Origin: Escherichia coli
GTDB lineage: Bacteria > Pseudomonadota > Gammaproteobacteria > Enterobacterales > Enterobacteriaceae
Direction: 5' to 3' (one strand)
DNA length: 64,000 bases
NCBI RefSeq assembly: GCF_001677475.2
Contig: NZ_CP015229.1
The notes beneath the pieces are model-generated. The model made no database searches, was not told the origin of the DNA, and worked only from the letters and a program-made list of their open reading frames with translations. Shown here one piece after another: positions 278-15,566 of this stretch. How positions within the stretch are numbered: the stretch's first letter is position 1; every line of letters begins with the position of its first letter. Made by a program: the position numbers and the translations under genes.

Positions 278-1027
278 TCAGATGGTCGAAATCAGCATTC
301 TGTGACCTTCGATATCCAGACGGCGAAAATTCATCCCATAGGCCTGCGCCAGATTTGGCGGCGTGAGCACCTCTTCTCTGCGTCCACTGGCCAGCATTTT
401 TCCACCTTTTAGCAACCACGCCCGATGCGCATGACGCAATGTGTGGTTGAGATCGTGACTGCTCATCACAATCGCCAGTCCTTGCTGACACAGCGCGCTC
501 AGAATTTTGTCTAACGCACTTTGTTGCGCAACATCAAGACTGTTCATCGGCTCATCAAGAAGCAGCAATTGGCCTGCGGGATTGGCTTGTGGTGTGATTT
601 GCAGCACCACCGCAGCAAGACGTACGCGTTGCCATTCACCGCCGGAAAGTTGATTGGTGCTACGTCCGAGTTTGTCATCAAGAGCCAGCGCCCCTGCGAC
701 ATCATTCAGTAGTTCGGTACGCGTTTTATCGTGCTGATGCAATGTCAGGTAGTGCCAGACCGGCATTGCAAACGGCGGCGTCTGCTGTTGTGAAAGATAG
801 GCGCGATGCAGCGCGAGTTTTGTTGCGGACCATGCTTCCAGTGGTTGCCCCGCGAACTGAATGCTTCCCTTACCGCTGGTCATTCCGGCCATTCGCGCCA
901 GTAAGGTACTCTTACCCGCGCCATTCGGCCCCACCAGGTGCAGGATCTCCCCAGCCCGAACCTCGCCAGAAAGCGGCCCCAGGCGGGTAGATTCCGCAAC
1001 ATCCTGTAACTGCATCACAATAGACAT
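278..1027 (-). CDS. btuD: vitamin B12 ABC transporter ATP-binding protein
   Basis: 249-aa ORF with Walker [10 protein letters not shown] and ABC signature LSGGE; btuCED synteny. Confidence 0.95.
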
Positions 1028-1578
1028 TATTTTGCCAACGCCAGTTTAATGCTTTCCATCACAATGGGATCTTCCGGCGTCATATCCGGGGAAAAACGCT
1101 GGATGACCAATCCGTCCCTGCCAACTAAAAATTTCTCAAAATTCCATAAAATATCATCAGGGTACAGCGGTGCACGACCTTTGCTGACCATACGGGCATA
1201 GAATCCGCTCTCTTCCGGCGCGACTGCGGTCGGCGCTGCGGCAATCAATTTTTGATACAGCGGATGGCGTCCTTCGCCATTAACTTCAATCTTACTGAAC
1301 ATCGGAAACGTCACCCCCCATGTGGTGGTACAGTAAGTTTTAATCTCTTCATCGCTGCCCGGTTCTTGTTCCAGAAACTGGTTGCACGGGAATCCCAGCA
1401 CCACAAAACCACGATCGGCCCAGGCTTTCTGAATATTCTCCAACTGCTCATATTGCGGCGTTAAGCCACACTTTGAGGCGACATTGACAATCAACAGCAC
1501 ATTACCAGCGTACTTCTCCAGCGTGGTCACTTCACCGTCGATATCTTTCACTACGGTCGTCAGAATGGAATCTTGCAT
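1027..1578 (-). CDS. btuE: glutathione peroxidase-like thioredoxin peroxidase
   Basis: 183-aa ORF, GPx-family sequence, overlaps btuD start (operon). Confidence 0.95.
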
Positions 1579-1640
1579 CGTTTCTCCTGGGTGTGGTCAG
1601 TAAAAATCTTAGCTTTTAATCATAGACCGTCTTTTTGCGG

Positions 1641-2621
1641 CTAACGTCCTGCTTTTAACAATAACCAGATAAACACCGGCGCACCTAACGTTGCGGTGAC
1701 CACGCCAATAGGCAGCTCTGCGGCAGCTAATGCCAGGCGCGCTACAACATCGGCCAGCAGCAATGCGCTCGCCCCTGCCAGCGCGCAGCCTGGAAGTAAT
1801 ACGCGATGATCGGTTAAACCACACAGCCGGAGAATATGTGGGATCACCAGACCAATAAAGCCGATAGCACCCGCCAGCGCCACACTGACGCCAACCATCC
1901 AGCCGGTCACTGCGACCAACACATTGCGCCAGAACCACAGGGGTAAACCCAGTTGCCGCGCCGAGATCTCGCCAAGTGCTAACATATTCATCGGCCTGGA
2001 CTGACAACAGATCCACAACAACACGGGGATCAATGCCAGCATCAGCCAGCTTTGCCGCCAGTCTACGCCGCCAAAACCGCCCATCATCCAGTACATCAGC
2101 TGACGCAAATCAACAGAGGTGGAAAAGTAGATAGCCCACGTCATTAGTGCGCTACAGATAATCCCTAATGCAACGCCAGCCAGCAATAACCGACTGGTCG
2201 AAAGATGACGACGGGCGAAACGTAAGAGTATTAAAGTGATGATAAGCGCGCCAGCAATCGCACACAGCCCCAGCGCCCAGTTGGGGAGTTGCCCTTGCCC
2301 AAGCAATACCGCGGCGATAAGCCCCACGCCTGCGCCATTAGAGACGCCAAGTAGTCCAGGTTCTGCCAGAGGATTTTCAAACAACGCCTGCATTACTGCG
2401 CCGGATATAGCCAGCGCCGCACCAACCAGCAATACAGCCAGCGTACGTGGCAGGCGAATTTGCCAGACGAACAGTTCGCCACGAGGAGTAAACCAGTCAC
2501 CTGGCGAGATCCATTGTTCACCGGCGCAAAGGCTTAAGAGAAGCGCCAGCAGCATCAAAACTGACAGGCATAATAACCAGCGAATATTTTGTCGCTGTTG
2601 TTGGCGGGCAAGTGTCAGCAT
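1641..2621 (-). CDS. btuC: vitamin B12 ABC transporter permease
   Basis: 326-aa polytopic membrane ORF; FecCD-type permease; synteny. Confidence 0.95.
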
Positions 2622-2679
2622 GGTATCCGTTCTGCTGAAGTGTCATGGCGTTGATTTTACGGTGACTCTTCGACAGTGA

Positions 2680-2704
2680 AAAGAAAAAAGGCCGCAGAGC
2701 GGCC
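2680..2704. repeat. attL core: 25-bp direct repeat aaagaaaaaaggccgcagagcggcc (copy of the ihfA terminator stem)
   Basis: Exact 25-bp identity with 39479-39503. Confidence 0.85.
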
Positions 2705-2793
2705 ATAAACACAAACAAAAATCAATAAGTTAGATAATTATCAAAGACTTACAGACACACAAAAACACAGCAAACCACAACAAATAACATAGA

Positions 2794-2813
2794 TGTGGTC
2801 AATTTGTGGATCA
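2794..2813. promoter_or_regulatory. putative integrase arm-type binding sites (tgtggtca / tgtggatca direct repeats)
   Basis: TGTGGNCA-like repeats adjacent to att core, matching tgtggaca near attR (39423-39430). Confidence 0.4.
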
Positions 2814-3344
2814 TCATCCAACAAATTTAGCAACAAATACAGCAACCGCCGCCGTGAAAATGGTTGTGCATACTGGCACAATAATGCCACTCCAACGCCA
2901 CTTCGTATTATCATCAACCTTGTCAAACCGCCGATTCATCTCATCCATAATCTTGTCAAAGCGTTTATCCATCGCTTCGGTAAGCTCACCCTTCAGGCTG
3001 TTAATGTCTGATTTGAGCTGCTCTTTCAGGTTAGCTGTATCAGATTTAAGCTCACCTTTCAGATTCGCAATATCGCATTTAAGATCACCTTTCAGATTCG
3101 CAATGTCTGCTTTGAGCTCACCTTTAACCTCACCAACATCGGCTTTGGTTGAGAGGTTTGTAGTGCGTTCAGCAAGCGTCGCAAGGTCGTTTCTTGTTAG
3201 CGATAAATCACCTTCGAGCCGCTCAATTCGCCTTTCAAGTTTATCTGACATTCCGCCTCCACTATCACCGCCTCCCCCACCGAAAGAGTTGCCAATGTCC
3301 TCACGAATAAGGGTTATGCCATGCTCACTTTTAGCATATGCCAC
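2814..3344 (-). CDS. hypothetical tail-anchored membrane protein with Gly-rich linker and five 11-residue coiled-coil repeats (prophage cargo)
   Basis: 176-aa ORF; repeats KADIANLKGDL/KCDIANLKGEL...; C-terminal hydrophobic helix IIVPVCTTIFTAAVAVFVAKFV; start abuts stop of upstream ORF. Confidence 0.6.
   Translation of the reverse strand: MAYAKSEHGITLIREDIGNSFGGGGGDSGGGMSDKLERRIERLEGDLSLTRNDLATLAERTTNLSTKADVGEVKGELKADIANLKGDLKCDIANLKGELKSDTANLKEQLKSDINSLKGELTEAMDKRFDKIMDEMNRRFDKVDDNTKWRWSGIIVPVCTTIFTAAVAVFVAKFVG
3000..3135. repeat. tandem ~33-bp coding repeats (about 4 copies) inside the cargo membrane-protein gene
   Basis: Repeated ...agctcacctttcagattcgcaat... units visible in the sequence. 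Confidence 0.7.
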
Positions 3345-3758
3345 TCAGATTCCCTCCCAAACTATATATCCTTTGTCTCTTGCCCAACAAACAACTGTGT
3401 GGGCTGTATATGTGGATGTGAAGCCGCAATAAGAACATGACACTTCATACCGAGTATTGTAGATGTTAATGGGCTCGTTCTCCTTGTGTATGGGAGTGAC
3501 ATATTCCCAATCATTTGAATCATCATAATCATCAAGTTCAGGGTCTGTGCCGTGAACAACCGTATGTGGAATAAACAAATCTAGGCGCCCACACGAGAGA
3601 CAAGAGGTTCTGGCTCCTCTATCTTTAAGGAATTGAATAAATAATTTGGGCGAAATCTGTTGCAGAACCTGCAAATGCCCACGTTCATTATCATTAAGAG
3701 ACCTGTCTGCATATGGAAAATCATCAAATTTAAGAGGCTTCATATAAGGCATCTCCAA
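3345..3758 (-). CDS. hypothetical Cys-rich protein (two CxxC motifs, possible zinc ribbon), prophage cargo
   Basis: 137-aa ORF immediately downstream of int, overlapping the int 3' end and followed without gap by the 176-aa ORF; start may be an internal Met (about 3743). Confidence 0.55.
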   Translation of the reverse strand: MEMPYMKPLKFDDFPYADRSLNDNERGHLQVLQQISPKLFIQFLKDRGARTSCLSCGRLDLFIPHTVVHGTDPELDDYDDSNDWEYVTPIHKENEPINIYNTRYEVSCSYCGFTSTYTAHTVVCWARDKGYIVWEGI

Positions 3759-4722
3759 GGGGATTAAATCTCACCGCATCCTGCAGGTAATCCGGCGCAA
3801 GATGGGCATAAATCATCGTTGTCTGAATCTTTGCGTGCCCCAGAATTTTCTGGAGCGTCAGAATATTGCCGCCGTTCATCATGAAATGACTGGCGAAGGT
3901 GTGGCGCAGCGCATGAACAGCCTGGCCGTCAGGAACATCAGGTGCGACCGTTTTGATGACATCGCGAACCAATGGATAATCCAGCGTCGGAAACACCAGT
4001 TTCCCGCCCCGTTTTTTGATCTTTTCAAACAGGCTTTCAGAAATAGGAACGGTACGGTTTTTGCTGTTCTTCGTTTTTGAAAAAGTGATTCGACAATGAA
4101 GAACACGGCGCTGCTCCAGTGCCGCTACCTCGCCCCATCGCGCCCCGGTCGACAGAAGGATTTCGACAGCCAGCCGTTCATCGGGATTTTCAGCCAGTGC
4201 ATCCAGCAACTGAACACATTCAGACTTACTCAGATATCCCATTTCGCGCTCGTTAACCTTCATTCCTTTAAGGCCTTGAACGGGGTTATCGTTAAGAAAA
4301 TGGCCGGATGAGATGAGTGCGGTAAACATCGCGCTTAACGCCCCAATCTCTCGATTTATGGTGCTGGGCTGTATCCCCTGCTCTATCCTGGACACACGTA
4401 GCTCGGTGAGCATCGTTGTATTAAGTTTATGCACGCACGGGTCATCCATTGCCTCACTCAAGCGCAGCAATTTAAGGCGCGTGTTATGCCCTGACTTCAT
4501 TAGCTGGCCGTGGTATTTCCACCACAAGTCAATAAGCACCGACAGCGGACGGCGATCAATGGAGTTTCCTTTCCACTCATTGTTATGCTGTTGCGCCAGC
4601 ACCCACCGCTCATATAAAACTGCATCCGATTTCGTTTTAAATTTTTTGCGAATGCGTTTGCCTTTACGCCCCTCCGGGCGCATGTCAAGAAGATACCCTC
4701 CCGGAATTGATTTTATGCTCAT
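3730..4722 (-). CDS. int: tyrosine integrase, P2 Int-like
   Basis: N-terminus MSIKSIPGGYLLDMRPEGRKGKRIRKKF... resembles P2 Int; C-terminal HxxR...Y catalytic region (HALRHTFASH...MIYAHL); start chosen at Met 51 of the longer ORF. Confidence 0.9.
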   Translation of the reverse strand: MSIKSIPGGYLLDMRPEGRKGKRIRKKFKTKSDAVLYERWVLAQQHNNEWKGNSIDRRPLSVLIDLWWKYHGQLMKSGHNTRLKLLRLSEAMDDPCVHKLNTTMLTELRVSRIEQGIQPSTINREIGALSAMFTALISSGHFLNDNPVQGLKGMKVNEREMGYLSKSECVQLLDALAENPDERLAVEILLSTGARWGEVAALEQRRVLHCRITFSKTKNSKNRTVPISESLFEKIKKRGGKLVFPTLDYPLVRDVIKTVAPDVPDGQAVHALRHTFASHFMMNGGNILTLQKILGHAKIQTTMIYAHLAPDYLQDAVRFNPLGDALYEAS

Positions 4723-4771
4723 TCGTGAAACCCCAGCGTTACAAGACCACCATGCCCCCAGCGCTCCATGA

Positions 4772-5083
4772 TTAGCCGGGCTGTGTGCCAGTCTTGCGGG
4801 GTTTTTGAGAAGGCGATGTGCTTTTTGGCCCATCAGGGGAGAGAGACGGACTGATCTGCCCAGCAGCCTCATTTGTTTCGTTACTCATCAACCACGTGGT
4901 GTATTTTTTAAAGTTCGGATGCATTGTGATTTTCAGTAAAACCTCCGTCCCCACACCTCTAATACCAGTCTCATATTGCTTAACTGTACCAACCGCAATA
5001 CCTATTGAATCCGCGAACTTTGCCTGGCTAAGTCCCTCAGATTCTCGAATTGCTTTTAGCTTCTTTGATATCTCTATTGACAT
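4772..5083 (-). CDS. C: immunity repressor, P2 C-like (HTH)
   Basis: 103-aa ORF upstream of int, divergent from cox; HTH and C-terminal tail resemble P2 C. Confidence 0.8.
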   Translation of the reverse strand: MSIEISKKLKAIRESEGLSQAKFADSIGIAVGTVKQYETGIRGVGTEVLLKITMHPNFKKYTTWLMSNETNEAAGQISPSLSPDGPKSTSPSQKPRKTGTQPG

Positions 5084-5178
5084 GGTGTGCACCTGAATAC
5101 TATATTGGTTATCAGTTGAGTACCACTTGACGCCACAAAAAGCCACAAATAGCACCAGATTGAATAGGTTATCACATC
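5084..5178. promoter_or_regulatory. lysis-lysogeny switch region (divergent Pc/Pe promoters and operator repeats)
   Basis: 95-bp gap between divergent C and cox; ggttatca direct repeats and a TTGACG -35-like hexamer. Confidence 0.5.
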
Positions 5179-5457
5179 ATGGCAAAAGTCCTGAACACAT
5201 ACGAACAAGCGGATTTTGAGCGTTTGGCGGCGTTCTACCCATACCGTGATGAGCATGGGTTACCTGTGCTTGAAGAAAGCCTGGAAGATTACGCGAAACG
5301 CACGAATCAAAGCATTCTTGCGGTAAGAAGGCAGGCCGACAGATCAGTAATCCCCGTCACCCAAGAAGGAAGAAACACAAAACGCAAAGTAAACCTTTTC
5401 GCAATATTCCTGAAAACCATCAGGAGCGCAGAGAAATACGTGCAGATGACAAAATAA
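5179..5457 (+). CDS. cox: Cox/Apl-like excisionase and transcriptional regulator
   Basis: 92-aa first gene of the early operon, divergent from C; size and position as P2 Cox. Confidence 0.7.
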   Translation: MAKVLNTYEQADFERLAAFYPYRDEHGLPVLEESLEDYAKRTNQSILAVRRQADRSVIPVTQEGRNTKRKVNLFAIFLKTIRSAEKYVQMTK

Positions 5458-5471
5458 CGAGGTGTAATTTT

Positions 5472-5810
5472 ATGCTGAAGCAACGCCATAATTTTCGTAC
5501 CGGAACGGAACGCCACGCTAACCGTTTCGCTACCAGTGCATCACGTAGTAACTCCCGCTACAGCCTGAGCGAAACACACGCTACACCTGATGGCCATCCC
5601 GTAAAACAAATTGGTGAACACACCTGGCTGATTGAGAAAGCTGGAATCGTGGTTCACAGATGCCAACGCAACCCATTTACCGGAAACCGCATTTTTGCTC
5701 TGAGCAACGGCGACACTCAGTTTGGACAGGATTTCACATTGTACGAAGCACTTCGCACGGTTGATCGTCTGCTTCGCGGGCAAAGTTTTATTAAACAGAC
5801 TGATTTATAA
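5472..5810 (+). CDS. hypothetical early protein
   Basis: 112-aa ORF in early operon. Confidence 0.5.
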   Translation: MLKQRHNFRTGTERHANRFATSASRSNSRYSLSETHATPDGHPVKQIGEHTWLIEKAGIVVHRCQRNPFTGNRIFALSNGDTQFGQDFTLYEALRTVDRLLRGQSFIKQTDL

Positions 5811-5820
5811 CAGGTGCGTT

Positions 5821-6099
5821 ATGACCAAAGAGCATGCACAAGGTGTATTTATCCGTTTTATTGATTTTCGCGGTGAACTGTTATTGCGCGCATCAGCTAT
5901 TGATGGAGTTGTCCCATCAGAAAAAAATGCAGCTACTTACGTTTATCTGAACGGCACGCGCCTGACCGTAGAACTTCCGTACCAGACTGTACACGGAATC
6001 ATTAGCGAAGCTGAAAAGGCACGTCAGGTTAATGGCAATGAACCCTATATCGAAATTATTTGCATGGATTCAGAAGCTGAAATCCAGAAAGCAGATTAA
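5821..6099 (+). CDS. hypothetical early protein
   Basis: 92-aa ORF with aggtg RBS upstream of ATG 5821. Confidence 0.5.
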   Translation: MTKEHAQGVFIRFIDFRGELLLRASAIDGVVPSEKNAATYVYLNGTRLTVELPYQTVHGIISEAEKARQVNGNEPYIEIICMDSEAEIQKAD

Positions 6100-11681: not shown

Positions 11682-12641
11682 ATGAAAATTTGTATCGACG
11701 ACGGCTCCACCAACATCAAGCTGGCATGGACTGAGAACGGCGAACGCCGCAACGCCATCAGCCCGAACAGCTTCAAGTCGGAATGGTCTGCGCCGTTCGG
11801 TGGCACGCAGCCCGCGAACTACATGCTTGATGGCGTGCGCTATGGTTTTGATCCGGTCAGCGATCGCTTTGTCCAGACGACCGACACGCAATACCAGTAC
11901 AGCGATGTGAATGTCATTGCCATTCATCACGCGCTGGTCAAATCAGGCATCACGCCACAGGAGGTGGATGTGGTTGTCACCCTGCCACTGAGCGAGTATT
12001 TCGACACAAACGCACAGCCGGACATGGCCAACATCAACCGCAAAAAAGCGAACGTTATGCGCCCGGTGGAGTACCAGAACGGCGAAGCATTCACTATCCG
12101 TAACGTGCGGGTTATGCCTGAATCCATTCCGGCTGGCTTTAAGGCACTGGCTGACATGAGTCCGTTTGAATCCCTGCTGATTGTAGATTTGGGCGGAACC
12201 ACGCTGGATGTGGCAAAGGTTCAGGGGCAACTGGCAGGTATCAGCCAGGTGTTTTGCGATCCACACGTAGGCGTTTCTCTGATGGCCGATGCCGTACTGT
12301 CGGTGATGGCCACTAACGGTATGCGCACCAGTCACCACATCGCCAATACCATTATCGAACATCGCCATAATGAAGCCTGGCTGCGCCAGCACATCCACAA
12401 TGACGCGCATTACGCCAGCCTGATGGAGGTTATTCGTGAAAAGGAAGAAACACTGAAACAACGCGTGATCCGCGCGCTGGCGGGTTTTTCGGGTTACGGG
12501 CGGGTGATGGTTGTCGGTGGAGGGGCGGAGATTGTGGCACCCGCTATCCGCGAAGCCTGCGGAGTTCATGCGACTTTCATCGCGGACGGGGTGCCACAGT
12601 TTGCTCTGGTTAATGGGCTGTACGCAATGGACAAGGAGTAA
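11682..12641 (+). CDS. parM: actin-like segregation ATPase, ParM/StbA family
   Basis: 319 aa; motifs IDDGSTNIKL, ISPNSFK, VMPESIPAG, DLGGTTLD, GGGAE, VNGLY parallel plasmid R1 ParM as recalled. Confidence 0.8.
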   Translation: MKICIDDGSTNIKLAWTENGERRNAISPNSFKSEWSAPFGGTQPANYMLDGVRYGFDPVSDRFVQTTDTQYQYSDVNVIAIHHALVKSGITPQEVDVVVTLPLSEYFDTNAQPDMANINRKKANVMRPVEYQNGEAFTIRNVRVMPESIPAGFKALADMSPFESLLIVDLGGTTLDVAKVQGQLAGISQVFCDPHVGVSLMADAVLSVMATNGMRTSHHIANTIIEHRHNEAWLRQHIHNDAHYASLMEVIREKEETLKQRVIRALAGFSGYGRVMVVGGGAEIVAPAIREACGVHATFIADGVPQFALVNGLYAMDKE

Positions 12642-12645
12642 ACCA

Positions 12646-12957
12646 ATGACGACACCAACCAGACGGATAAGTTTCTATCTGAAGCCTGCGGCCGTCAAGA
12701 ACGAAAGCGAAGCATGCGCCTGGCTGGACAGCCTTACACCAGAAGCCCGCAAAAGCGGCCAACGCGTGGCTTTTCTGGCCGGGCTGGCACTTCTGAAAAT
12801 GAATCCGGCAGAGGCTTACCGACTGGCTGCATGGGCTGACGATGAGGCGTTATCAGTGACACAAACCAGGACAGAATGCCCCGCGTCACAGCCAGTATCA
12901 ACCGCACAGATAACCAGTCAGATGGCCGGAAATATCCGGGCGTTATTTCCCGAATAA
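12646..12957 (+). CDS. parR: ParR/StbB-like partition adaptor (DNA-binding)
   Basis: 103 aa directly after parM; RRISFYLKP...LDSLTPEARKS...AFLAGLALL and C-terminal NIRALFPE resemble R1 ParR as recalled. Confidence 0.65.
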   Translation: MTTPTRRISFYLKPAAVKNESEACAWLDSLTPEARKSGQRVAFLAGLALLKMNPAEAYRLAAWADDEALSVTQTRTECPASQPVSTAQITSQMAGNIRALFPE

Positions 12958-12962
12958 CACAA

Positions 12963-12986
12963 CATCAGGGCGCATCCGCCCTGATG
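12963..12986 (+). terminator. hairpin after parR (catcagggcg-catc-cgccctgatg)
   Basis: 10-bp perfect stem; weak T tract, so terminator function is uncertain. Confidence 0.35.
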
Positions 12987-13020
12987 ACTTTAATCCGGGA
13001 ACATAAACAAGGGGGACACA

Positions 13021-13356
13021 ATGCAACACATTGACAGAGAAAAAGCGCAGCGACTGATTGAGCGAATGGAAGCGCTGGCGAAAGAAGAAAATGTCAACAT
13101 CCAAAAAATAGCTGAATGTGGCCAGATAGTTCTTCGTCGTGAAAAAGACATCAAGCAACTGATGTCTGGCGAAATCAGCAAAACATGGACTTCAGGCAAG
13201 AAGACGATTTATTGCAGCTTCTGCAATAAATCCCAGCACGAAGTCATAAAGGTGATTGCCGGACCGTCTGTTTACATCTGCAATGAGTGCGTGGATTTGT
13301 GCAATGAAATTATCAGAAGAGAAGTGACAGACCATGAAGAAAAAACGCATGAATGA
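13021..13356 (+). CDS. stand-alone ClpX zinc-binding-domain (ZBD) homologue with unique N-terminal region
   Basis: 111 aa; segment [39 protein letters not shown] closely matches the E. coli ClpX N-terminal C4 zinc-finger as recalled; no AAA+ module follows. Confidence 0.75.
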
Positions 13357-13418
13357 CGAATTTGACGGCTTTTAATTTTATCGGGGCACACTGTCTCCCC
13401 CCGCACGAGGAAAACACG

Positions 13419-13943
13419 ATGAAAAAATACGAATACATGCTAATGAAAGAAGCACTGCGGGCTGGTCTGGCTCCCTGTCCTGTATCCGTAGAAGCTGTTG
13501 TTGGGAACACGATTTTCCGAACGCTGCGAAATCGCGTATCCGTGAAGATGATTCACCAACCACCCAAATCTACCAGCATGATCTATCTGCCGCTGCCCGA
13601 GGCTATCAAACTTATGCGTTCGCTGAAATTTGCGATTTGGATGCAGACACAACTCAACAAAGCGGTGCAAAACACCTTCGTTAAGAAACTGATGCCGGAG
13701 CTTGCTGCCAGATGTGCAAAATGTACCAGACCCGCACTTCAATTTGATCTGTCATTGATTCAACAAGCTACGGAGGCAGAACTGTACCGCCTGTCACCTC
13801 TCCATGATGTTCACACGGAAGCCTCAGAAATGTTCCGGCTCATGTTTCAATTTAATTTTGCCGTTCGACGCACACGCGTTCAGGTCAATCGCATGATGCA
13901 GGCGCAGGAAGAGCTGACGCAACACAAAGGAGGCAACCAGTGA
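13419..13943 (+). CDS. hypothetical protein (cargo, gene A-proximal hotspot)
   Basis: 174-aa ORF from ATG 13419 with RBS; stop overlaps next start. Confidence 0.55.
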   Translation: MKKYEYMLMKEALRAGLAPCPVSVEAVVGNTIFRTLRNRVSVKMIHQPPKSTSMIYLPLPEAIKLMRSLKFAIWMQTQLNKAVQNTFVKKLMPELAARCAKCTRPALQFDLSLIQQATEAELYRLSPLHDVHTEASEMFRLMFQFNFAVRRTRVQVNRMMQAQEELTQHKGGNQ

Positions 13944-14464
13944 GCAAGATTGACTATCAGGCATTACGCGAACGCTATTCACCTGCGCCAGTACCGAAAT
14001 GCCCTATTTGCGGCGAGGAAATGTCAATTCAGCGAATATCTGGAGCACAGGTTGTTTATGCCTGCTCCGGTTATGGTGATGATGGAGATTTCAAAATTGG
14101 TCGAACTCTTGCCGACGAACATTATGAAAAATCGCGCGTAACAGTGTTGGATGTCGGGGATCCTGAAGTATTGGCGCTACTTGATTGGCTGGAAACTAAA
14201 GACAACCGAATCGCTGAACTGGAAAAAATCGCCACTGACTATGCACTTAAATTCCAGAAAGCACAGGACGCATTAAAGCATGCCGCTTTGCTGCATAGCC
14301 GGACGGCGCAACAAACAAATAATTTTGCAGTATCGCTTCCGGACATAAGCGAATATTTCATTAATGACGTATTTCAGCCCTTGCGATACGAGCGGGATGT
14401 TGAAAGAGCCATCATAAAGGCTGGCGGAAAAGCATTGTGGCAGGAGAAACACGACGACAGATAA
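13940..14464 (+). CDS. hypothetical protein with N-terminal CxxC...C zinc-ribbon-like motif
   Basis: 174-aa ORF ATGA-coupled to previous gene; CPICGEEM...YACSGYG. Confidence 0.55.
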   Translation: MSKIDYQALRERYSPAPVPKCPICGEEMSIQRISGAQVVYACSGYGDDGDFKIGRTLADEHYEKSRVTVLDVGDPEVLALLDWLETKDNRIAELEKIATDYALKFQKAQDALKHAALLHSRTAQQTNNFAVSLPDISEYFINDVFQPLRYERDVERAIIKAGGKALWQEKHDDR

Positions 14465-15041
14465 AAATAACACCTGATCTCCCTCAAACCAGGGCGATAA
14501 TCGCGCATCGCCCTGCTGCACAATAGTGCACAAATTTGCACAATTTTTTTGAACGACTTTTTGCCCTTCCGGCCCGCGTGGCGGCTGGATCCGTCAAGGA
14601 TCCGTGCGTGCACAAAAAAACGCGTTTTTTCTGCGCGCAGGTGACGGGGGAACAGCCCGCGTTTCAGGGGGTAAATAGCGTTCCCTTAACGATGTCGCAG
14701 CGACACGACAGAATGGCCGTATCGCTCACGCTGAGCGTGAAAAATACGTGAGGGATTCTGATTTGATGGGGTGAAAGGTAAGGCCGTCAAAATCGCACTG
14801 AGGCGGCGAGAACATGCAGTCAGCGCGGTGGGATTGTGTAGAGTCTGGCCGTCGATGATAGCGATAAGTCGGAAGATGTCGTGAAATTATCTGATTGATA
14901 CGGGAGCTGGAGAGCCGGGGCATAAATTTTTTATGCCCCGGCGAAGCAGCAGACAAGCGAAGCGCGTCAGTGATGCGGCACCTTGCCGACCACACTTCAT
15001 AAGTGCAAAATACGAGCAAAGAAATCAATGGAGGCTGTTTT

Positions 15042-15566
15042 ATGGTCATTAATTACAAGCAGTTACGAGAAAAACGAGAGCAGGTAAAGGAAAGTTTTCG
15101 CCGCAATGAAGATCTGACCCCGCTTGTACACCTTGCCCAGGGAATTGTTGATGCTTATGAAATCTCTCTGGAGCTGCCATCACAGACATGGACGGATAGC
15201 GACGGTAATCGCCAGCATTACGTTTCATGCGGACTGGAAACAACTGAAGGGTTTCGCAGAATGCCTTTATCTCAGATTCCTGCCGCTACCCCCAAAGCAA
15301 GGGGCGGCAATGATGAGCGAAAACTGATTTTCAGCATTGAGACAGTGGTTGACGACACACCTGGCGAAGTCGCGTTCGTGCATACTCCTCTTTCGATCGC
15401 AATGTATAACGATGAAATACAGGTTCGCGTTAATAATAATATCGTGCCACTTAAAGAAGGTAATTCACCATACACCACCGTTTGTGAAGCCATTCAATAT
15501 TACGTTCTCTCTGAAATTGATAATCTCAAGCCTGACGGCACCCAGAAAATGGTTCAACTCTGGTAA
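15042..15566 (+). CDS. hypothetical protein between cos region and portal gene
   Basis: 174-aa ORF convergent with Q; the ORF-track alternative start is 15003. Confidence 0.5.
   Translation: MVINYKQLREKREQVKESFRRNEDLTPLVHLAQGIVDAYEISLELPSQTWTDSDGNRQHYVSCGLETTEGFRRMPLSQIPAATPKARGGNDERKLIFSIETVVDDTPGEVAFVHTPLSIAMYNDEIQVRVNNNIVPLKEGNSPYTTVCEAIQYYVLSEIDNLKPDGTQKMVQLW

Follow-up and report, generated by a model that had tools for sequence, protein, structure and literature searches.

Whole-unit length variation in a hendecad-repeat stalk gene of a P2-like Escherichia coli prophage

Proteins of the DUF1640/CCDC90 type have a head-neck-stalk-anchor architecture and form trimers, and their family, PF07798, takes in human MCUR1 and CCDC90B, yeast Put6/Put7 and many small prokaryotic proteins. 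It is the closest known family to the product of the gene considered here, a small stalk gene of a P2-like prophage of Escherichia coli, which lies on the minus strand at positions 2814-3344 of a 64,000-nucleotide window (the whole stretch of DNA that was analysed; NCBI RefSeq assembly GCF_001677475.2, contig NZ_CP015229.1) and forms a two-gene cassette with a zinc-ribbon gene immediately upstream. As a phenomenon, the nearest known parallel is the way in-frame repeats in coiled-coil rods vary in size: in streptococcal M proteins and the stalks of trimeric autotransporters, in-frame repeats in helical rods gain or lose whole units by misalignment, and the length variants keep their register. 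The array in the stalk gene is of the same kind, being made of in-frame helical-rod repeats with natural length variants. M proteins and autotransporters, however, are surface-exposed, and their variation is tied to immune evasion or reach, whereas in the small window protein, which probably faces the cytoplasm, a single length strongly predominates.

In our reading, to which we assign a probability of about 0.8, the 33-bp repeats encode the stalk of a small tail-anchored prophage protein, and whole units are sporadically gained and lost by misalignment or unequal recombination. Number-variable tandem coding repeats are already well known, and no current idea is overturned by this one.

The repeat array and its length variants

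The program TRF reports one array at 2981-3125, with a period of 33, 4.4 copies, 73% matches, 0 indels and a score of 129. Read on the minus strand and in frame within the open reading frame (ORF) 2814-3344, it resolves into five 11-codon units at 2973-3137 (residues 70-124 of 176 aa): VGEVKGELKAD (unit 1, 3105-3137), IANLKGDLKCD (unit 2, 3072-3104), IANLKGELKSD (unit 3, 3039-3071), TANLKEQLKSD (unit 4, 3006-3038) and INSLKGELTEA (unit 5, 2973-3005). Units 2 and 3 are the closest pair in the window, with 30/33 nt identical, and the outer units are more divergent (15-23/33). Identity within the array is 0.68 at lag 33 versus 0.17-0.28 at lags 30-32 and 34-36, and none of 5000 codon shuffles attained 0.68 at any lag (best-lag mean 0.37, standard deviation 0.024). 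Since 23 contigs, one of them of 5.29 Mb, encode exactly this 176-aa product, the array is not peculiar to the assembly of the window.

Hydrophobic residues occupy unit positions 1, 4 and 8, and hydrophobic periodicity along the stalk is strongest at 3.69 residues (~11/3), with a power of 3.96 at 3.667 versus 0.28 at the heptad value of 3.5. An AlphaFold2 monomer model built on 24 homologues predicts a continuous helix over residues 67-142, with a per-residue confidence (pLDDT) of 80-91 in the repeats. A first-pass annotation of this DNA, made from the letters alone, had placed about four units at 3000-3135; it was essentially right in this, though slightly narrow, as there are five units at 2973-3137 in a gene on the minus strand. 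Its description of the 33-bp units as encoding 11-residue helical repeats agrees with the hydrophobic pattern and the modelled helix, and its assignment of the gene to a cargo membrane protein is borne out by a predicted C-terminal transmembrane helix and by the position of the gene between attL and int of a P2-like prophage.

Among homologues in a large protein collection, the core protein is 112, 123, 134, 145 or 156 aa long, and in all close relatives the segment from the neck to the MDKRFD motif measures exactly 22, 33, 44, 55, 66 or 77 residues, or 2-7 units. DNA of representative 2-, 3-, 4-, 5-, 6- and 7-unit alleles places every one of them at the same locus, marked by int, the zinc-ribbon gene, the stalk gene and btuC. 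When the alleles are laid out in register, each length change is a multiple of 33 bp, and the junctions, which fall at several different points, show microhomology, with 4-28 nt of identity between units. Allele pairs were compared by single-gap alignment of the core gene, and in four of them the gap is accompanied by 0 other core-gene differences: L002 (5 units) and L009 (4 units) are separated by 33 nt, with 13 nt of microhomology; L001 (5 units) and L011 (3 units) by 66 nt, with 13 nt; L001 and L013 (2 units) by 99 nt, with 8 nt; and L015 (7 units) and L004 (5 units) by 66 nt, with 28 nt. The 4-unit alleles have three distinct junctions, two joining units 2 and 3 at different points and one joining units 1 and 2, and are thus independent in origin, on different allelic backgrounds. 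The 6-unit allele, L007, has one added IANLKGELKCD unit. Assemblies with variant alleles include GCA_019212645.1 (4 units, a core allele of 405 nt), GCA_018336235.1 (3 units, 372 nt) and GCA_025788615.2 (7 units). With differing unit numbers in near-identical alleles at one locus, the array is a variable-number tandem repeat.

Such variants are uncommon. The stalk gene is present in 38 of 5,426 complete E. coli genomes; among the matches listed, the 5-unit allele is found on well over 1,700 contigs, and the 2-, 3-, 4- and 6-unit alleles of the same sub-lineage on ~45. All protein-cluster members with a counted repeat segment have five units, and that number is kept across divergent backgrounds, serotypes and types of N-terminal tail. 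In a sister sub-lineage neighbouring units are identical in DNA and the spread is flatter, with 3-7 units on few contigs, a pattern that would fit an instability rising with unit identity. The array is polymorphic, not hypervariable: its variation is occasional and is not high-frequency switching, and the wide scatter among close relatives that characterizes a contingency locus is absent. Carriers among the records include E. coli O157:H7, O145, O26, O103 and O55:H7, and there are proteins named from Shigella sonnei.

Architecture of the stalk protein

Beyond the stalk, the AlphaFold2 model has a disordered segment (residues 1-30), a helix (33-63), a break (64-66) and a terminal helix (145-175). 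The N-terminal helix, assigned to residues 32-63 (3156-3251, minus strand, MSDKLERRIERLEG...), takes the place of the DUF1640 head; it contains the invariant residues L36, E37, R39 and E44, and the PF07798 match begins only after it. The neck motif L-S-T-K-A-D (residues 64-69, 3138-3155, minus strand) coincides with the modelled break, resembles a beta-layer motif and includes T66 and K67, which are invariant in the family. The main array is adjoined by two further 11-residue units, MDKRFDKIMDE and MNRRFDKVDDN (2907-2972, minus strand); the sister sub-lineage has a single one, and in the alignment the L004-type proteins show an 11-residue gap at exactly this place. The predicted C-terminal transmembrane anchor (residues 151-172, 2829-2894, minus strand) is a hydrophobic run with invariant P157 and V158, and is followed by 4 residues. 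A 12-bp tandem repeat, CAACAAATACAG, with 2.3 copies at 2819-2846, lies within the codons for the end of the anchor (AVFV/AKFV). With its neck, stalk and anchor, the protein probably forms oligomers as a DUF1640-like stalk and sits on the cytoplasmic side of the inner membrane.

Hartmann et al. found the beta-layer motif [aliphatic]-A-T-K-[polar]-[DE] to be prominent where the C-terminal stalk of DUF1640 membrane proteins begins (PMC4786415). The L-S-T-K-A-D neck of the window protein is a near match, with S for A and with A at the polar position, and a coiled-coil stalk with a single C-terminal transmembrane anchor is predicted here as well. In RefSeq the relatives from E. coli go by the names 'DUF1640 domain-containing' or 'CCDC90 family', and 17 of 24 close family members match PF07798 at E < 0.01; the precomputed PF07798 matches of the members looked up are weak or faint only. 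A family-profile search retrieved 1,789 representatives at E <= 0.001, mostly of 110-250 aa. Of 140 small remote relatives listed, a hydrophobic C-terminal tail is present in 89 and an [AS]TKx[DE] motif in 88, and several of the retrieved proteins pass the PF07798 cut-off from position 1 and carry ELKxDIAxLRx 11-mers, in widely differing numbers, after an ATKxD motif. The DUF1640 head segment 'DT..L..LE..GF...QAE' is present in P0108 and P0117-P0119, which match from position 1, whereas the window protein has a Gly-linked disordered tail and one helix instead; it also differs from the family in being prophage-encoded and paired with a zinc-ribbon gene. We conclude that the window protein appears to share the neck, stalk and anchor of DUF1640 proteins and to have a different N-terminal module.

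An 11-residue periodicity could instead mark an amphipathic helix lying along the membrane surface. Apolipoproteins, alpha-synuclein, perilipins and LEA proteins are of this kind, and their 11-mers are likewise encoded by 33-bp repeats. The resemblance extends to sequence matches, which are weak in both Pfam and the PDB: the best Pfam E-value is that of the Apolipoprotein A1/A4/E domain (7.5e-6), which 15 of 24 family members match, and apolipoprotein A-IV is the top match among solved structures. There, all matches have E-values of 0.02 or worse, and they include coiled coils with ATK-type repeats, designed or natural (7o92, 6h9l; neither entry is mentioned in the papers searched). We consider a surface helix unlikely, however, since the apolipoprotein match reaches 26 bits where the cut-off is 90 and no homology to these proteins is above threshold. 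Only 3 of 11 positions (1, 4 and 8) are hydrophobic, forming a narrow seam between Lys and Asp/Glu flanks that is the pattern of a coiled-coil core and not that of a wide face for binding lipid, and the units come after an ATKxD-type neck and before a membrane anchor, exactly as in DUF1640 proteins.

Gain and loss of whole units

Each unit encodes one hendecad, with 11 residues, three helical turns and hydrophobic positions 1, 4 and 8. Gain or loss of one unit changes the length of the rod by a step of ~1.6 nm and, because the unit is 33 bp and corresponds to one hendecad, both the reading frame and the helical register (the seam) are kept at each event. Short identical tracts (4-28 nt) in neighbouring units may permit misalignment in replication, or unequal exchange, with whole-unit gain or loss as the outcome; this agrees with the general behaviour of short tandem direct repeats in E. 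coli. The events would be sporadic or counter-selected and not a programmed switch, the 5-unit form being by far the commonest. The stalk would fix how far from the membrane the N-terminal helix and a flexible, Gly-linked peptide are held, and the protein probably acts with the zinc-ribbon protein of the cassette. The suggestion in the first-pass annotation that copy number could vary between strains is confirmed, since homologues do not share one number but have 2-7 units at the same locus in otherwise near-identical sequence. The slipped-strand expansion and contraction that it proposed would fit the exact 33-bp multiples, the 4-28 nt of junction identity and the four pairs that differ by an indel only.

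Several points weigh against this account. Without exception, the 35 intact copies from complete E. coli genomes carry five units, with no length change (those of H38 are five units of other composition), and the alleles of the window's sub-lineage with other numbers all come from draft or metagenome assemblies. Slippage between units is inferred as the cause from the structure of the junctions, and the oligomeric coiled coil, the membrane topology and an effect of stalk length on function are likewise deductions. PF07798 (CCDC90-like, formerly DUF1640) gives the most informative match of the window protein, at 25.8 bits (E 1.1e-5), less than the 33.5-bit gathering cut-off, and this match covers only profile positions 68-171 of 175, the head being ~1-67. 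Matches to further families and to proteins of solved structure are weak, and coiled-coil composition gives rise to matches of this sort; neither cassette protein has a PADLOC match beyond coiled-coil noise.

A more dynamic scheme is a contingency locus, in which high-frequency switching of units within a clone would give several stalk lengths per lysogen population as adaptive bet-hedging. The four allele pairs that differ by an indel without a point change indicate that indels are not much rarer than substitutions, and the sister sub-lineage has perfectly identical neighbouring units together with its flatter spread of 3-7 units. The contig counts given above, with five units far ahead of all other numbers, and the persistence of five units across divergent backgrounds, serotypes and N-tail types nevertheless make such switching improbable. 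In the window, moreover, units share at most 30/33 nt and perfect tracts are at most 20 nt long, and, with a unit length divisible by three, the array is unable to turn expression on or off.

The differences in copy number might also be artefacts, if short-read assemblers collapsed or expanded a constant five-unit repeat. The uniform five units of the complete genomes would be as expected, and the rarest alleles have a thin record, the 2-unit form being known from one 951-bp Logan contig and the 6-unit form from two metagenome contigs. The units are non-identical and distinguishable, however, and the microhomology at the junctions of the 33-, 66- and 99-nt deletions is 4-13 nt. Assembler k-mer sizes exceed that length, so a de Bruijn graph could not join sequences at such junctions. 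The 3-unit alleles stand on 10 contigs (P0015) and the 4-unit alleles on 8 (P0007), in separate assemblies; the changes always comprise whole units, with clean chimeric junction units, and the whole 165-bp array fits inside a read pair. We therefore give very little credence to assembly error as a general explanation, which is unlikely, less so for the one-contig 2-unit allele and the two-contig 6-unit allele.

That the repeats serve mainly as DNA-level sites, binding integrase (arm-type) or accessory factors at attP with their coding capacity secondary, is highly improbable: the stalk gene does adjoin the att core and short direct repeats are present in the phage arm, but the array begins ~270 bp from the 25-bp core and within an ORF, the arm-like pairs ATGTGGTCAATTTGTGGATCA (2793-2813) and AATGTGGACACATCGTGGAATG (39421-39442) are placed elsewhere and are unrelated to the 33-mer, the same 11-residue unit recurs at the protein level in remote relatives that are not beside att, and unit number changes without loss of the prophage.

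Prophage setting, partner gene and possible role

The stalk gene, of 176 codons from GTG 3344, has GGGAGGG 7 nt upstream of its start, whereas its RefSeq relatives mostly start at ATG 3251 (145 aa). The frame upstream of ATG 3251 is open in all versions examined, including at least 5 divergent N-terminal sequences of 31-37 residues; its first codon, GTG or ATG, lies directly against the stop of the partner gene or overlaps with it. The tails carry a K-x-E-x-G-[IV]-T-[PL]-I-R motif or are of a second, 'MGNAA.N' type, and all finish with a Gly-rich GGGG-x-S-GGG linker; in more distant Klebsiella and Salmonella relatives the N-terminal part is likewise Gly-rich. Together, the open frame, motif, linker, position of the start and GGGAGGG sequence indicate that the real product is probably 176 aa, and that the 145-aa RefSeq gene models, which seem to be 5' truncated, cut off a conserved N-terminal tail. 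In the window, tail and linker occupy residues 1-31 (3252-3344, minus strand) and are predicted to be disordered (pLDDT <50 over 1-30).

The partner gene (3345-3743, minus strand) encodes a 132-aa zinc-ribbon-like CxxCG...CxxCG protein, and the stalk gene, whose GTG directly adjoins the stop of the partner, is translationally coupled to it. Homologues of the partner occur in all related loci, with 24-67% identity, an invariant CxxCG...CxxCG motif and lengths of 132-166 aa (L002:4539-5039; L007:2026-2508; L004:4413-4811). Its model is of fair confidence (pLDDT 81), and the protein matches no known family and nothing among solved structures beyond the zinc ribbon. The type of N-terminal tail tracks the type of partner gene and not that of stalk or anchor, so that the Gly linker marks a mosaic joint. 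The start of the partner gene is overlapped by the 3' end of the gene for the tyrosine integrase (3730-4872, minus strand), which was identified by Pfam Int_N and Phage_integrase matches and by RefSeq annotations of relatives; the true start of the integrase is probably internal, giving ~330 aa. On the minus strand, a simple promoter scan gave no convincing candidate for the cassette, so its co-transcription with the C-like repressor gene and int, on a lysogenic C-int transcript, is suggested by gene overlap only.

The element is a ~36.8-kb P2-like prophage between ihfA and btuC. On one side lie btuD, btuE and btuC (278-2621, minus strand) and the 25-bp attL core (2680-2704), which is repeated exactly at the far end as the attR core (39479-39503); ihfA starts at ~39820. 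Between the att copies are the integrase, a helix-turn-helix (C-like) repressor, an ORF positioned as the replication endonuclease (gpA) of relatives, and ORFs sized like portal, terminase and tail genes; the stalk gene is the last before attL, downstream of int and the 132-aa ORF. A circular Klebsiella P2-like record has the same order of repressor, int, small gene, stalk gene and gpD end, and the cassette thus belongs to the phage genome. A search of the phage collection returned no near relative of the locus, only this Klebsiella record (40% identity) and DUF1640 proteins of Liberibacter phages SC1 and SC2; the idea that the latter are the known hypervariable repeat genes of those prophages was checked and found no support.

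The 25-bp att core corresponds to the ihfA intrinsic terminator, with GGCCGCTCTGCGGCC and then a run of T on the minus strand (terminator-like site 2704-2690, 110 bp downstream of the stalk gene), and its attL copy would therefore terminate the stalk gene in the prophage. The paired direct repeats ATGTGGTCAATTTGTGGATCA, immediately next to the stop codon of the stalk gene, and AATGTGGACACATCGTGGAATG, close to attR, contain TGTGG and look like candidate arm-type integrase binding sites on the two phage arms. A 10-bp A/C-rich tandem repeat lies at 2762-2784, in the phage arm between stop codon and att core. An Rfam scan of 2000-6000 gave nothing at or near gathering score, and a reading of the region as an RNA element was dropped; a sub-threshold match to the small RNA STnc540 (2622-2745, minus strand; 22.5 bits, gathering score 38) covers the btuC upstream region and the att core. 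Two complete genomes, of E. coli M1/5 and 300709, have IS3-family elements in or beside the stalk gene (L003:4346-5515 and L005:2719-3932). One of these cuts the N-terminus short and the other takes the place of the membrane anchor, and the stalk gene is thus dispensable for the host in those strains.

Accessory ('moron') genes of P2-like phages have preferred sites. The classical P2 hotspot is between gpA and portal (PMC9122126), and the int-att interval of P2 elements is a minor one, with 3% of their defence systems (10.64898/2026.02.27.708500, preprint). In the window the classical hotspot (11682-15566, replication gene to portal) holds five or six ORFs (319, 148, 111, 196, 174 and 187 aa) with 0 matches to PADLOC defence models. 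The cassette itself differs from these loci, including those of the int-att interval, in its lack of any such assignment: Pfam, NCBIfam and PADLOC gave no above-threshold match for either protein. The stalk protein had coiled-coil-type matches only in PADLOC-DB 2.0 (ZorA and LmuB tails, 21 bits), the partner and its variants had nothing meaningful in PADLOC, and in PHROGs the two proteins matched two families of unknown function, phrog_9415 and phrog_4293. It is conceivable, if doubtful, that the zinc-ribbon and stalk genes form a two-gene lysogenic-conversion or anti-phage module of P2-like prophages on the repressor-integrase transcript, in which unit number would set the distance from membrane to effector peptide and gain or loss of units would retune activity or specificity. 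Were this so, the co-variation of N-tail and partner types would reflect physical contact between the two proteins.

In conclusion, the stalk gene is a clear case from nature of a coiled-coil stalk whose length varies by exact hendecads. Many pathogenic E. coli carry the cassette, and its array could be used as a minor typing marker. The natural series of 2-7 units is an allelic set for probing stalk length in DUF1640-type proteins, a family that includes human mitochondrial MCUR1.

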